A stretch of 64,000 bases of DNA from assembly GCF_030684315.1 (NCBI RefSeq), contig NC_081379.1, positions 29,031,947 to 29,095,946 of the forward strand. Reading direction: 5' to 3'. Source of the stretch: Stegostoma tigrinum. Its lineage: Eukaryota. The translations under genes were made by a program, and so were the position numbers. Positions 11,060 through 24,219 of the stretch are shown in pieces. Under the pieces are notes generated by a model, which did not search any database, was not told the origin of the DNA, and was given only the letters and a program-made list of their open reading frames with translations. Each line of letters begins with the position of its first letter. Positions within the stretch are counted from its first letter, which is position 1.

Positions 11060-11780
11060 ATTTCCCAATATGGCCACAATAGCTCCTCTGTAGATCAAAA
11101 ATCTAACTCAATCTTGAATAAATTAAATGTCAGTCTCCACAGCTGTCCAGGGAATGAATTCCACCGACTAACAAAACACAAATTTCTCTTCACCAATGTA
11201 AACAGAGACTCTTGTTCTAATGATAATGGGAACTGCAGATGCTGGAGAATCCAAGATAACAAAGTGTGGAGCTGGATGAACACAGCAGGCCAAGCAGCAT
11301 CTCAGGAGCACAAAAGCTGACATTTCAGGCCTAGACCCTTTGTGCTCCTGAGATGCTGCTTGGCCTGCTGTGTTCATCCAGCTCCACACTTTGTTATCTT
11401 GTTCTAATATTGATTCTAGTCTTCCCCACAGCAGGGAATTGCCTCCAAGAATCTAAGCTGAGGAGACTATATGAAGAATGCTACTTATCATTCTAACTTT
11501 AATGTGTAGAGGCCCAATCTTCCTACATAAAATGACCTTTACCTAGGAATGATTGAACAGAACCTTCTGAAGTGTCTAACAGTAATTTTAATTAAGAAAA
11601 CTGGTATAATACACAGAACTCCAGATGTGGTATCACTAAGGTTTGTACAGCTGCAGTAAAACTTCCCCATGCATTAAGACCAACATTCAATTTGCCTGCC
11701 TAATCAGTTCTTGCACCTGCAGACTAAGTTTGTGATTCCTATACCAGGATACAGAGATCTCCCTGTAACACAATTTTGCA
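11060..11780 (-). mobile_element. Decayed CR1 fragment hosting a fold-back insertion
   Basis: GGGAATGAATTCCAC...AAATTTCTCTTCA and ACTCCAGATGTGGT motifs shared with other CR1 copies. Confidence 0.55.
11222..11400. mobile_element. Fold-back element family A with 12 bp TSD
   Basis: ~62 bp perfect inverted arms (11253-11314 / 11339-11400); TCTTGTTCTAAT at 11210-11221 and 11397-11408. Confidence 0.85.
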
Positions 11781-12506
11781 ACCTTGAAATAGGCCAGAAA
11801 AGGAGAATGTAACTGCACTGGTCATTAAAGCTACAAGCTTCTGAATCAGGAGCACACATGCTCCACTTAAGTCACTGAGTCACACAGTAAGGCTATAAAA
11901 AAGAATCATATCAAGCAGGATACCTAAACTCTACCAATTTAAAAAACATTTTTGTTTAGAAATAAACAGACAACTCATCTTCACAAATGCTTTAGAGCAA
12001 CCCTCTGCAAGCTTTAAGTGGATTAATTGTTCAAATCGAGAGAGACAGGTCACAAATTAAGCAATCTTTGCAAACAGTTCTAGACAGTTTAATAAATCCC
12101 TCAGTGCTTGCATTAAACATTCCAGCATACTGGAAGCAATAAGTGTTTTCATTGGTAGGACTCCATTTGGACCAAAAATCTTCCATTAGCAAATCAACTT
12201 TCAGATGTATCCCAAGGATATTCTATTTCACCTCCACAGTTAACCATGACAATTATATTGTTAAGATGCACATGCGAATGTCATGTTTAGTTGAGTACTT
12301 TGAAAACTTATAACTAGGGAAATTTAGGGGGGCTGTTACTCGCTGATTTAGTTCAATGTTTGTTTGTTTCAAATGAGCAGAAAAGATAAATACTGGTATA
12401 CAAGTGACATTTCATGCTGCATTCTGTAAATAAAGTTAAGAAAAGATCAATTTCATAACTCATCTGGCCCAGAATTGAATTATCACATCCCCATTTCTGT
12501 TGGCAG

Positions 12507-12678
12507 AGATAGTAAGAACTGCTGATGCAGGAGTCAGAGATAACAGAGTGGAGCTGGATTAACAGCAGACCAGCCAAAAAGTAGACGTTTCGCGTCGGGA
12601 ACTGAAATGTCAACTTTCCTGGTCCTCTGATGCTGCCTGGCCTGTTGTGTTCCACCAGCTCCACACTTATCTTTGACT
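12507..12678. mobile_element. Older, degenerate family A fold-back element
   Basis: Diverged inverted arms of the same family; possible decayed TSD CTGTTGGCAGAGAT / CTGTTTGCCTAGAT. Confidence 0.6.
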
Positions 12679-13052
12679 GTTTGCCTAGATACAAGGCAAC
12701 TTATGGATGCAGGAGACTTTCTGCAGTACAATATGGTCATGACCAAAACCATCCTCCAAACTCCTGTCATACGACCATATCATCCCAGTTTCTAAAACAA
12801 TCACTTGCAAATCCAGAAAAAAAAGCAATAAACCACAATTACCCACTACCTCCACAATCCATCTATACAGCGATCTTAATGTTAAAAAAAATTTCAAACA
12901 GCTTTAGTGTAATTAGGAAAAAGTTGTATGTTAAGCCAAAGGAGAAAATATTAGGAGGGGAGATGTCAAAACAACAAAAAAGCCTTGAGAAATATAATCA
13001 AACAGAAGAGTTGCATCTGCATTACATCACCAGAAACCTAAACCCAACTTAC

Positions 13053-13131
13053 TTGAGCAGTGCAGTTTGACTGGAGGGAGGCATAGTTCCTTAGCAATGT
13101 CTGTGTTTTTAATTGTTAAAGCTTCATCGAC
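13053..13131 (-). CDS. ISCU: ISCU exon 4
   Basis: VDEALTIKNTDIAKELCLPPVKLHCS; AG/GT boundaries; LPPVK is the HSPA9-binding motif. Confidence 0.96.
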
Positions 13132-21183: not shown

Positions 21184-21327
21184 ATGATGGCGACTATCGG
21201 GAGGCGACGGTCGAGTGAGGCTGAGGAATTGGAGGTTGGAACCGGGGGCGACTCGGAGGAAGAAATGGAAGACTCTTCGGAGGACGAGCAAGAAAACGAG
21301 GCGGAAATCCAGCGTTTGGAAGAGCAG
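21184..21327 (+). CDS. SART3: SART3 exon 1
   Basis: MMATIGRRRSSEAEELE...ENEAEIQRLEEQ|gtgcga. Confidence 0.9.
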
Positions 21328-22842
21328 GTGCGACGTGATGGCGGGCGGGAGTGAGCCCGCGGGATTTAAAACTTCAGCACGAGCTCCCCCTTCCCCCAGC
21401 CCCGTCCCAGTCCCACTTACTCTCCCAGCCCTTTCGCCCTCATCCCACCTCTACCACGCACTCTCGACCCCTCCCCACTCACCCCGAAGTTCCCTCTCCC
21501 ATTCCTCCGACCTCCTGCTGACTCCTGTCCGCCTGGCCTGTTCACTGTTGTGAAATAAGTAAACCAAAACATTTCCGTCATTGCCGAAGTAAAACAAACA
21601 TCTGAAAAATCACTTGAAAACCACGTAGTCAGGACTAATCCTTCGAAGAGCCAAGAGAAAGGCAAAATGCCTGAGGTCATCTACGGAGAGAAAATATAAT
21701 TTTCTGGGGCATAGTACTCAGGTTCACGCTGAGTTGAATGAATGGCCCAATTTCTAGCTATGTATGTATGATAAAGTCATGACCAATAAAATCCAAATGA
21801 CTTGAAGCATATGCCTTGACTCACAATAAATCTCACTGGCAGCCAGTGACTAGTAAGTTACCACAGGGATTAGTGCTTGGATCCAGCTATGGAGTATAAT
21901 GGATATATATGCAATTATCCACTTTGGTAGCAAAAACAGGAAGGCAGATTATTATCTAAATGGTAACTGGAAAAGGAGTAGGTCCAAGAGACATGGGTGA
22001 CCTTGTACACAAGTCAGTGAAAGTGAGCATACACATGTAGCAGTGAAGAAAGCAGGTGGCCGCCTTAGTGAGAGGATCCTACTGCAGGAACAAAGATGTC
22101 TTGTTGAAATTGTACTGGGCCTTGCTGAGAGCGAAGCTAGAGTATTGTGTTCAGTTTTTATCTTGTTACCTGAGGAATAGTGTTCCAGCTTTGGAGATAG
22201 TGCAACAAAGGTTTACGAGGCTGACACCGGGACAGCAAGACTGATATACGAAGGCTTTGTTAGGACAATCTTCATTGGAGTTTACAAGTATGAGGTTGGA
22301 ATCTTGTAGAAACCTATAAAATTATGACAGGACTAGACAGGCTTTATGCAGGAAGGATAGTTCTGATAAAAGGAATCCAAACTAGAGGTCACGATTTAGG
22401 AATATGAGAATGCCATTAGGGACTGAGATAAGAAATGTCTCATGCAGACTGGTGAGCTTGTGGAATTATCTGTTACAGAAAGCTGTTAGAGATAAGACAT
22501 TGAATGTTTTCAAAATGGAGTTAGATATAGCTCTTGGGGCTAAAGAATCATAGGGTTTGGAGAGAAGGTGGGAACAGACTACTGAGTAGGATGATCATTA
22601 TTGATGATTGCTAGGTAATTGAGTCCATTTAAGACGGAGATAGATAGGTTCTTAATTATCAAGGGGATCAAGGGTTCGGGGAGAAAGCAGGTGAGTGGAG
22701 CTGAGGAAATTATCAGCCGTGATTGAATGGTAGAGCAGACTCGATGGGCCGAATGGCCTAATTTCTGCTCCTATGTCTTATATGTTCTTATTATATTGAA
22801 AAGCAGATCAGACTTGAAGGACTGAATGGCCTAATTATACTC

Positions 22843-23074
22843 AGAGGTAAAAGGGAACTGCTGATGCTGGAGAATCCAAGATAACAAAGTGTGTAAACTG
22901 CATGAACACAGCAGGCCAAGCAGCATCTCAGGAGCACAAAAGCTGACGTTTCGGGCCTAGACCCTTCACAGAGAGCCTCTCTGATGAAGGGTCTAGGCCC
23001 GAAACGTCAGCTTTTGTGCTCCTGAGATGCTGCTTGGGCCTGCTGTGTTCATCCAGCTACACATTTTGTTATCT
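22843..23074. mobile_element. Family A fold-back element with intact hammerhead core and 16 bp TSD
   Basis: ~110 bp inverted arms centred at ~22976; TGGCCTAATTATACTC (22827-22842) / TGGCCTAATTCTACTC (23075-23090). Confidence 0.88.
22979..23010 (+). ncRNA. Minimal type I hammerhead ribozyme motif (Penelope-type)
   Basis: CT-CTGATGA-A-GGGT(CTAG)GCCC-GAAA-C-GTC^AG; loop-less stem III as in known Penelope minimal hammerheads; activity untested. Confidence 0.7.
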
Positions 23075-24219
23075 TGGCCTAATTCTACTCCTATTTTTTC
23101 TAAATTTCTCAAGACTCTATGATCATTACTAAACTTTAATTAGTCTTGATCTAGACTAAAGTCACATCTCAGAAATTTGGGACACTGTGGTTCCTCAAGA
23201 ATCTGCTGCTTATCCTTTCCAATGCTATTGTGAAAAATTTAAGTGCCAGTTGTGATGGGCCAGTTTAATGAGTGTGATATTTAAGTCAGTTCTCTTGCTA
23301 GCAAATTACAGACGTAAGCTGTTTATAACTCTCACCAGTGCAATGAGATCATCATACTCAAACATAGTGAAAGTGTAAGATAAACTGTCAGGATTCACCG
23401 TCAACATCTCAAGTGAGGTCATTTATTTGAAAATTGTTGGATATCACGGACGTCTAAGAACGGTTTAGCTCTGGAAGCTGTATTGTGTCCCAGCTATATC
23501 TCCATGTAAACAACTTTCTCAGCAGTTTCCATATGTAAACTGAGTGAGATTCTGGAGAACAGTAATGCGATTCTTTATATTGTATACCGTTTATGGCAGT
23601 GGAAGTACTTTATTCCACTTGGGCGACTATGTTCAATTATGGAAATTACCACAATTCTGTGGACTGAAGTACTTCATGCTCAGTGAAATACTGAAATCTG
23701 ATTTATTATAAATAAAATTATTCAGTAGGAAGAAAAAAGACACTGAAGAGTCAATCTTACCTCCGATTTGTTCCCATGTTTACAGAGACTTGCTGCCCTC
23801 AAAGCAATAAGGCTGCACTTTTACAGAAGAATATTGTGGTTTTCATGGTAGAGCAGTCCTCTATGCAACAATGTAAAATAGTGTATCATTTCACACTAAG
23901 TGATGATGAAAGGGTATTTTTAAACCCTCTGTTTATCTGTTTAAAACATTTTACTTCTGAGTTTCATATGGCTTTATGCTTGTTATGTCATTGGCCAGGA
24001 AGCTTGATGTTTTTATTTTGTGGCATTAACACAGTTGTCAAGGTTTGCCATAGACTAAATAGACGCCCATTTTTGTCTGATGTGAATGACAAGTTTAAAA
24101 ATTGAGAAGCAGACTTATTGATAACCAATTGGCTATTAGAAAGTTTAATAAAATGACAGATGTATTCTAATATTAATCACTGGCATGAGGACAGCAGTAA
24201 TCTGTGCCATTTATTTTAG

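Follow-up and report, generated by a model that had tools for sequence, protein, structure and literature searches.

What are the short, inverted-repeat units that recur in a 64-kb window of the Stegostoma tigrinum genome, and how did they arise? The window is the whole stretch of DNA analysed here (64,000 nucleotides of contig NC_081379.1, numbered from its first letter). Each unit has two arms facing one another, and most are enclosed by a target-site duplication (TSD), so that they look like MITEs (miniature inverted-repeat transposable elements). They are almost certainly by-products of a Penelope-like element (PLE). Very probably, the fold-backs are truncated copies of the terminal repeat of a PLE (the pseudo-long terminal repeat, pLTR), joined head to head inside one TSD, likely by a process in which both ends of the cut target prime DNA synthesis; two-ended priming as such is the route that we somewhat favor.

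An arm profile was built from ten arms of the window and searched against the window and its reversed form. The window gave 24 matches at E<=1, 21 of them at E<0.001; its reversed form gave none. Of these 21 arms, 16 pair head to head and form eight fold-back loci, while the other five are single or tandem arms (at 5220/5491, 19143, 32020 and 52686). An inverted, 5′-truncated pLTR thus lies head to head with a direct copy at 8 of the 12 arm-bearing loci. An earlier note on this DNA had described seven loci of shared architecture; all seven are fold-backs, but the list was incomplete and the profile added the locus at 4036-4209. In the following list, the tailed arm is the one that carries the end of the repeat and the tail-less arm the one that lacks it.

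4036..4209, minus strand: decayed fold-back, not listed in the earlier note; 14-nt TSD at 4022-4035/4208-4221
11222..11401, minus strand: fold-back with tailed arm 11222-11340 and tail-less arm 11339-11401; 12-nt TSD at 11210-11221/11397-11408, the first 5 nt of the right copy also matching the element; putative intron 4 of ISCU
12507..12677, minus strand: decayed, older fold-back; weak TSD; putative intron 4 of ISCU
13756..14092, minus strand: fold-back with long arm 13759-14026; 14-nt TSD at 13742-13755/14092-14105; putative intron 3 of ISCU
14448..14673, plus strand (the 14454 locus): fold-back with the tailed arm on the right and both hammerheads damaged; 15-nt TSD at 14439-14453/14674-14688; putative intron 3 of ISCU
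22843..23077, minus strand: near-perfect fold-back of about 96 pairs with a 1-3 nt loop; 16-nt TSD with one mismatch at 22827-22842/23075-23090; putative intron 1 of a SART3-like gene
25669..25830, plus strand: decayed fold-back, palindromic at its centre and with part of the tailed arm deleted; TSD not found
59771..59936, plus strand: fold-back in which the tail-less arm outreaches the tailed arm by about 60 nt on the inner side; ambiguous 11-nt TSD at 59760-59770/59937-59947

The two arms are 97-100% identical to each other at four loci (100% over 63 nt at 11222), and the overlap between them varies from 21 to 98 aligned columns. A weak match to the profile at 60091-60181 (plus strand, E 0.0023) is possibly a far older arm.

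Target-site duplications of 11-16 nt had been reported around the units in the earlier note. They are clear, at 12-16 nt, in five of the eight fold-backs, but ambiguous at 59771, weak at 12507 (p about 0.1) and absent at 25669. The duplications at 11222, 13756, 14454 and 22843 score 12-15, while 1478 random position pairs gave no more than 8; that at 4036, with one mismatch in its 14 nt, scores 11, and 800 matched pairs allowed the same slack reached at most 10. The 11-nt duplication at 59771 is ambiguous because its 9-nt core is found five times in 59760-61760. All five lie upstream of the FICD coding exon, where the sequence is rich in CpG (59726-61766), and the 59771 element is inserted in one of the five copies of the 9-nt motif. 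A TSD was also sought at 19143, 32020, 52686 and 5220-5609 and, as at 25669, none was found (best scores 5-6). At 22754 there is a paralogous target of the 22843 insertion, unoccupied and with a single copy of the TSD motif.

An empty site was found for the insertion at 11222. Contigs of four sequencing runs, out of 19 listed, were aligned to 10900-15000; run X1 comes from organism A, and runs X9 and X13 come from organism B, a related species. In both X9 and X13, which belong to two studies, a single contig spans 10900-11202 and resumes at 11397, with 8 letters between these points where the window has 194. Position 11397 is the first base of the right TSD copy, and 7 of the window's 194 letters precede the left copy; organism B therefore has room for one copy of the TSD and no element. 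On this spacing, the site is empty in organism B, whereas in X1 the flanks run into the element from both sides. The X9 and X13 contigs reach 12528 and end inside the 12507 element, so that this insertion is likely older and common to organism B. An X9 contig covering 14357-14474 suggests that the 14454 insertion is shared as well.

The outer ends of the arms are clustered. With positions counted from the last C of CCCATTATC (position 0), all tailed arms end between 0 and +4, in agreement with the near-fixed end point of the full arm proposed earlier. The inverted arm had been called variably truncated; this holds for its inner end, whereas its outer end falls within a band 28-50 nt before the tail end, at -28 to -50 in all eight fold-backs (at 59771 the automatic arm ends ran into the flank and were set by eye). 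This offset is the published PLE tail of 30-40 nt, present on one end only. Loose ends of X1 contigs, where arm sequence gives way to unrelated flanks, are concentrated at 11222 (position 0, at least 1130 contigs), 11254 and 11399 (both position -32, at least 1549 and at least 1013) and 14550 (at least 1449, with only about 10 conserved letters upstream, near -129). These counts are incomplete, being drawn from the best matches, and subfamily differences and a 3-nt deletion at 14550 help to fix where alignments stop. Each end of the tail bears the motif TTATCT (5567-5572 and 5600-5605, 33 nt apart), a candidate signal for two start sites.

The repeat continues into a PLE elsewhere in the window. 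At 84% identity, the arm matches 52690-52821, where a remnant with a GIY-YIG region has its 3′ end, and the earlier identification of the arm as the terminal repeat of a GIY-YIG Penelope at 52686-53480 stands to that extent. The locus is not an autonomous element, however, but a broken one. The arms outside the fold-backs, among them this remnant, are as follows.

5220..5609, plus strand: partial tandem of a 320-nt internally deleted PLE unit, with tail, first codons of the open reading frame (ORF) at 5326-5409, 3′ untranslated region (UTR) and pLTR
19141..19262, minus strand: single arm with short inverted-arm fragments alongside; no TSD; flanks give weak matches to a PLE ORF profile
32018..32314, minus strand: PLE 3′ fragment with ORF end, 3′ UTR and the 5′ part of the pLTR; no fold-back
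52686..53483, minus strand: PLE remnant with the C-terminal GIY-YIG region, 3′ UTR, pLTR with a dead hammerhead, and tail

The arm at 19143 seems to be embedded in an old remnant of a PLE ORF (18736-19400; profile iE 0.045 and 0.068). In the remnant at 52686-53483, the frame 53235-53468 (minus strand) shows 69% identity to a protein of the whale shark, P0002, that matches both RVT_1 and GIY-YIG and whose full-length relatives are reverse transcriptase (RT) proteins of 820-1100 aa (97 matches). In a tblastn search, residues 299-462 of P0002 map to 53042-53483 in three frames. The remnant is 5′-truncated and frameshifted across these three frames, its RT part is absent, and it is not autonomous. 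Pfam gave no family on the window's own frameshifted pieces of the remnant (2 and 3 pieces), and the identity came through the homologues. Because the repeat is contiguous with the GIY-YIG region and the homologue has both RT and GIY-YIG, the arms appear to belong to an endonuclease-bearing (EN+) PLE.

The unit at 5220-5609 points to a second kind of donor. Within its 320 nt, partly repeated in tandem, the tail is followed by 28 ORF codons and then by a jump to the 3′ UTR and pLTR; in the partial tandem the pLTR precedes the ORF start, with the tail and then the ORF N-terminus following it. The 28-codon piece was not detected directly by the full-length PLE profile but was bridged by a zebra shark homologue, P0101, whose N-terminus it matches at 93% over 28 residues and which itself matches the profile at E 5e-28. 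The long arm of the 13756 fold-back contains the pLTR, the 3′ UTR and PLE ORF codons 10-27, and starts inside an internally deleted unit of the same kind (13973-14026). At least one fold-back was therefore likely copied from a short non-autonomous RNA. In 5220-5609 (plus strand) and 13886-14026 (minus strand), the first ORF codons are joined to the 3′ UTR at nearly the same point, and the two copies are candidates for a retrozyme-like, non-autonomous family able to act as donor.

The earlier note presented the units as a special family that carries hammerhead ribozymes, and this framing is too strong. The motif does occur, and a strict minimal descriptor gave two matches, at 22981 (plus strand) and 13883 (minus strand), with none in 100 shuffles. 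But only these 2 of the 16 arms reaching the motif region have an intact core; the other 14 are damaged or truncated, many by CpG-type changes. The 11222 arm lacks the 5′ half of the hammerhead (CTGANGA), the remnant at 52686 has G12>A and a 3-nt insertion, and the copy at 5494 in the 5220-5609 unit is damaged. The motif has the catalytic core, the extra base after A9, the G10.1-C11.1 pair and the palindromic 15.2-16.2. Helix I has 2 bp at 22981 and none at 13883, short of the 4-5 bp expected. Helix II has 4 bp and is 95.8% paired over 12 arms (U-G and U-A in a ratio of 7/5), with no two-sided change and no excess over shuffles. Rfam gave no hammerhead family among its 8 matches to the window at E<=1, a result that does not count against the motif, given that minimal hammerheads lack helix III. 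The exact 29-nt hammerhead pattern had no match in viral, prokaryote genome and metagenome collections.

In the fold-backs the ribozyme is likely inert, to judge from the damage in 14 of 16 arms and from the predicted masking of the core by the opposite arm. At 22843 the core (22981-23008, plus strand) is 89% paired to the other arm in the predicted fold, and the predicted minimum-energy folds of 22976-23015, as monomer and as dimer, also leave the core paired rather than in the active fold. At 13756 it is the short arm, beginning at -102, that covers the cut site (-97). Most arms extend past this predicted cut, as expected for an uncleaved template.

The inner ends are shared only in part. 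Half of them (8 of 16) fall at -118 to -129. The tail-less arm reaches more than 40 nt further inward at three loci (4036, 25669 and 59771), the tailed arm more than 20 nt further at two (11222 and 13756), and the two are within 5 nt at the remaining three. All eight inner junctions in the window are different, and the fold-backs therefore look like one-off products rather than a family moving as a unit. At 14448-14673 both arms share variants unseen in the other copies of the window, including a base that matches the target duplication; conversion between the arms after insertion is possible. Among the contigs there are joints, from elsewhere in the genome, in which a sense arm is cut at the tail start and followed by an antisense tail end (11399 to 11222, 49 X1 contigs; 11399 to 13757, 32 contigs). 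These may reflect tandem fold-backs, or new copies that landed in pLTRs already present.

The route we propose is the following. The element endonuclease would nick both target strands 11-16 nt apart, and each freed DNA end would prime reverse transcription on element RNA. Synthesis on the first end would begin, unpaired, at the fixed tail site. On the second end it would start upstream of the tail, where a few nucleotides pair: the tail-less ends of the six loci with a TSD have 2, 5, 1, 6, 3 and 2 nt that fit target and element alike (19 nt in all; P<1e-5 under a geometric null), the tailed ends 1, 0, 0, 1, 2 and 0 nt (4 nt in all; P=0.18). Both complementary DNAs (cDNAs) would stop early, and often at a common inner stop (-118 to -129) that lies just ahead of the hammerhead core and is likely the 5′ end of the RNA or a strong block. 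The two antisense cDNAs, one per target end, would then be joined by repair into a head-to-head unit with the tail on one side and a single TSD. The donor RNA could be the full element or, as at 13756, a short internally deleted unit, and the products are likely dead on arrival. A precedent exists in the Poseidon element of the anole, whose protein, in the in vitro experiments described in PMC11167929, cleaves and extends both target strands, with two internal start sites that bound the tail and with uncleaved RNA. Beyond this two-strand extension, the present data would point to a second end that pairs over a few nucleotides and to arms whose extension is independent of each other.

A snap-back of a single cDNA is the alternative with most to recommend it, although we hold it to be rather unlikely. 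A cDNA primed at the tail end would fold its 3′ end on a short palindrome and prime itself, or self-priming would take place on an antisense template, as proposed for Adineta; the copy would stop 28-50 nt short of its start, and microhomology would join it to the second target end. Self-priming has been put forward in the Discussion of PMC3846280. It would suit the palindromic or near-zero-loop centres at 22843, 25669 and 4036, the inner overlaps of 2-3 nt at 11222 and 13756, the near-identity of the arms at four loci and the variants common to both arms at 14454. Yet at 4036, 25669 and 59771, and over 3 nt at 14454, the tail-less arm includes sequence that the tailed arm lacks, for which extra deletions would be needed. 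In addition, the second end clusters near the tail start, in agreement with a mapped RT start site, and both strands are extended in vitro by the PLE protein studied in PMC11167929. Several points nevertheless weigh against two-ended priming and the insertion history given above. Two of the three loci with the longer tail-less arm (4036 and 25669) retain a palindromic centre, and their difference in arm length could come from later deletion in the tailed arm, which fits snap-back equally; the shared variants at 14454 fit the copying of one arm from the other, or later conversion; and end joining, too, would be expected to leave a short overlap on the tail-less side. The sample is eight loci, six of them with usable TSDs; the overlaps were scored by eye, under a geometric null that ignores local base bias, and the in vitro work on anole Poseidon described in PMC11167929 found no target homology at either start site. 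The 64-kb window contains no intact autonomous PLE copy, and loss of the 11222 element in organism B would formally account for the empty site there.

The other explanations fare worse. It is quite improbable that the fold-back is itself a mobile, retrozyme-like hairpin, transcribed and re-inserted whole. Some inner joints do recur among the contigs (13884 to 14550 in 13 X1 contigs, 13884 to 14556 in 19 X9 contigs), and the 5220-5609 unit shows that a short non-autonomous type of donor exists; but the eight junctions of the window all differ, more than 3000 further joints were found in the contigs, intact cores are rare and the one at 22981 is paired to the other arm, and recurrent joints are expected by chance at such abundance and cluster at the common inner stop. 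Two independent adjacent insertions, or a later inverted duplication of a solo arm, would be compatible with the single arms at 19143, 32020 and 52686 and with some joints that suggest insertion into an existing pLTR (11399 to 11222, 49 X1 contigs). This is very improbable: one TSD encloses both arms at 5-6 of 8 loci, the orientation is head to head in eight of eight, and the whole 187-nt unit is missing from the orthologous site. A DNA-transposon MITE with terminal inverted repeats, which the short shape, the TSDs and the very high abundance would bring to mind, has next to no chance of being correct. The TSDs measure 11, 12, 14, 14, 15 and 16 nt rather than having a constant short length; with their offset of 28-50 nt, the two ends do not form inverted repeats of one another, and the variable arm overlap leaves no repeat of fixed length; and the repeat runs on into a GIY-YIG PLE, although in a remnant rather than an intact copy. 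The view of the earlier note that these are abundant, MITE-looking products of PLE retrotransposition is supported by the variable TSDs, the arm overlap, the PLE 3′ end, the empty site and the at least 1000 contigs per end. Units of this kind should be annotated as PLE ends.

The predicted RNA folds divide the fold-backs into two groups of four. The folds predicted for 22843 and 11222 have energies of -183.1 kcal/mol (z -24) and -134.8 kcal/mol (z -19), and the main stems comprise 65, 80, 85 and 96 pairs at 11222, 13756, 14454 and 22843. The claim that every copy is a 60-110 bp hairpin applies to these four, in which the predicted stem is at least 60 bp, but not to 4036, 12507, 25669 and 59771, with 23-44 pairs. 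In isolation, none of five single arms is predicted to fold more stably than shuffled sequence (z -0.12 to 0.19). Young intronic fold-backs are thus predicted to form long RNA hairpins in host transcripts, and here they would place stems of 65-96 bp in introns of housekeeping genes (ISCU and the SART3-like gene). Heavy editing of Penelope in a lizard (PMC5625713) and small interfering RNAs from inverted Penelope copies (PMC3681739) have been described; by analogy with these precedents, effects of the hairpins are likely but would not be new in kind.

In all, 272,038 X1 contigs align to the 4.1-kb stretch, mostly on the arms, and at least a thousand per arm end join the arm to unrelated flanks, which supports a very high genome-wide abundance of PLE-end inserts. 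Eight fold-backs in 64 kb, extrapolated over about 2,950 million letters (X1), would correspond to some 370,000, from one gene-rich window. Depth was rejected as a measure of copy number and served only as a rough ratio between species, scaled to single-copy contigs. On this scale, depth over 11222 and 13756 is about 3-11 times higher in organism A than in B, and depth over 12507 and 14454 agrees within about twofold. These ratios are in line with a young subfamily and with the empty site. More tentatively, and with slightly less than even confidence, shark genomes may hold about 100,000 or more minimal Penelope insertions that record asymmetric two-ended priming, in which one target end begins unpaired at the fixed tail site, the other begins 30-50 nt upstream by way of 1-6 nt of pairing, and both cDNAs run off a defined 5′ end of the RNA just ahead of the hammerhead core. 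If so, a table of these insertions would resolve the origin of PLE inverted repeats and tails, and the insertions themselves would be a main source of intronic double-stranded RNA in sharks.

The host genes around the insertions, and other features of the window, are listed below.

ISCU, minus strand: solved ISCU chains match the exon 13054-13131, with other exons near 10822 and 15938
18061-18171: NifU_N domain match, ISCU
20001-22000: CpG island between the head-to-head ISCU and SART3-like genes
SART3-like gene, plus strand: HAT, RRM and Lsm-interaction matches between 26061 and 51477; its first exons are probably near 21184 and 24220
55617-56708, minus strand: FICD, tail to tail with the SART3-like gene
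4409-4480 and 5016-5087, minus strand: two tRNA genes above the Rfam threshold, between the 4036 fold-back and the 5220 tandem
27152-27220, plus strand: weak SNORD31-like match in a SART3-like intron, 30.5 bits, below the threshold of 40
6905-7046: 63-nt inverted repeat, 90% complementary, with a 16-nt spacer; the PLE arm is not its source

The SART3-like gene is so called for the order of its HAT, RRM and Lsm-interaction domains, and the gene order over 10760-56708 is presumably that of the human locus. Taken by themselves, the protein matches to whale shark and zebra shark point to a likely carpet-shark-like host. The 25669 fold-back would also lie in a SART3-like intron. In a further run, X5 (47 million letters), the bins around the ISCU exon are covered and the unique intron bins are not (12955-13365); it may be an RNA run and was not used as evidence.

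A similar process is known from L1. In L1 twin priming, both target ends prime on the element RNA, the second by short pairing, and a 5′ inversion results inside one TSD. The likeness to the fold-backs lies in the two-ended priming on element RNA, the paired second end and the single TSD. L1 inversions, however, join non-overlapping parts of one RNA, whereas here both arms copy the same stretch, so that two RNAs, a tandem RNA or re-use of one RNA would be needed.

Among PLEs, the layout itself is standard. An inverted pLTR, a 30-40 nt tail on one end and a TSD are described as the PLE signature in PMC3846280 and PMC8557442, and recur in the descriptions of EN+ PLEs in PMC8969392 and PMC2377424. 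The examples from Adineta (Pen2a) and Drosophila virilis (Penelope) presented in PMC3846280, PMC8557442 and PMC2377424 have, like the shark units, a head-to-head inverted 5′-truncated copy, a one-ended tail and a TSD around the whole, with palindromes at some inner junctions. The shark unit differs in consisting only of two partial pLTRs with no ORF between them and in its far higher density (8 in 64 kb), and its TSDs of 11-16 nt compare with 8-10 nt in the Adineta examples shown. Very short PLE insertions, with a median of 128 bp, are reported for Chlamydomonas (PMC9977147). Poseidon of Anolis carolinensis, as characterized in PMC11167929, shares the two preferred ends that bound the tail, the hammerhead upstream in the pLTR and the uncleaved templates; the shark ORF, in contrast, starts (5326) about 40 nt after the tail and not inside the hammerhead, and its tail-less end shares a few nucleotides with the target.

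The hammerhead, too, is of a known kind. The minimal hammerheads of metazoan PLEs described in PMC4209133 have the same core, extra base between 9 and 10.1, G10.1-C11.1 pair and palindromic 15.2-16.2, and lack helix III; helix II has 4 bp here and helix I only 2 bp, as in D. virilis, against 4-5 bp in Schistosoma. In Schistosoma, the same source reports pairs of minimal hammerheads 100-700 bp apart on opposite strands. Animal non-LTR retrozymes are presented as PLE derivatives in bioRxiv 10.64898/2026.07.22.740005, where the mean of 363 bp in the sole chondrichthyan sampled is close to the 320-nt unit at 5220-5609. The fold-backs are inverted, unlike these head-to-tail tandems, and the only partial tandem of the window has a damaged hammerhead.

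Among the open-licence papers listed in the literature searches, no title dealt with shark fold-backs or end-specific target overlap, and the origin of PLE inverted repeats is called undefined in a passage of PMC8557442. The fold-backs are real and abundant but mostly ordinary: in class and layout they match the known elements, with hammerheads mostly dead or masked and no two inner junctions alike. The end-specific overlap, the independent inward reach of the arms and the internally deleted donor are the new details. Tiny, abundant and TSD-bounded, with empty sites in a relative, these copies offer a test bed in which models of PLE inverted repeats could be compared by counting.

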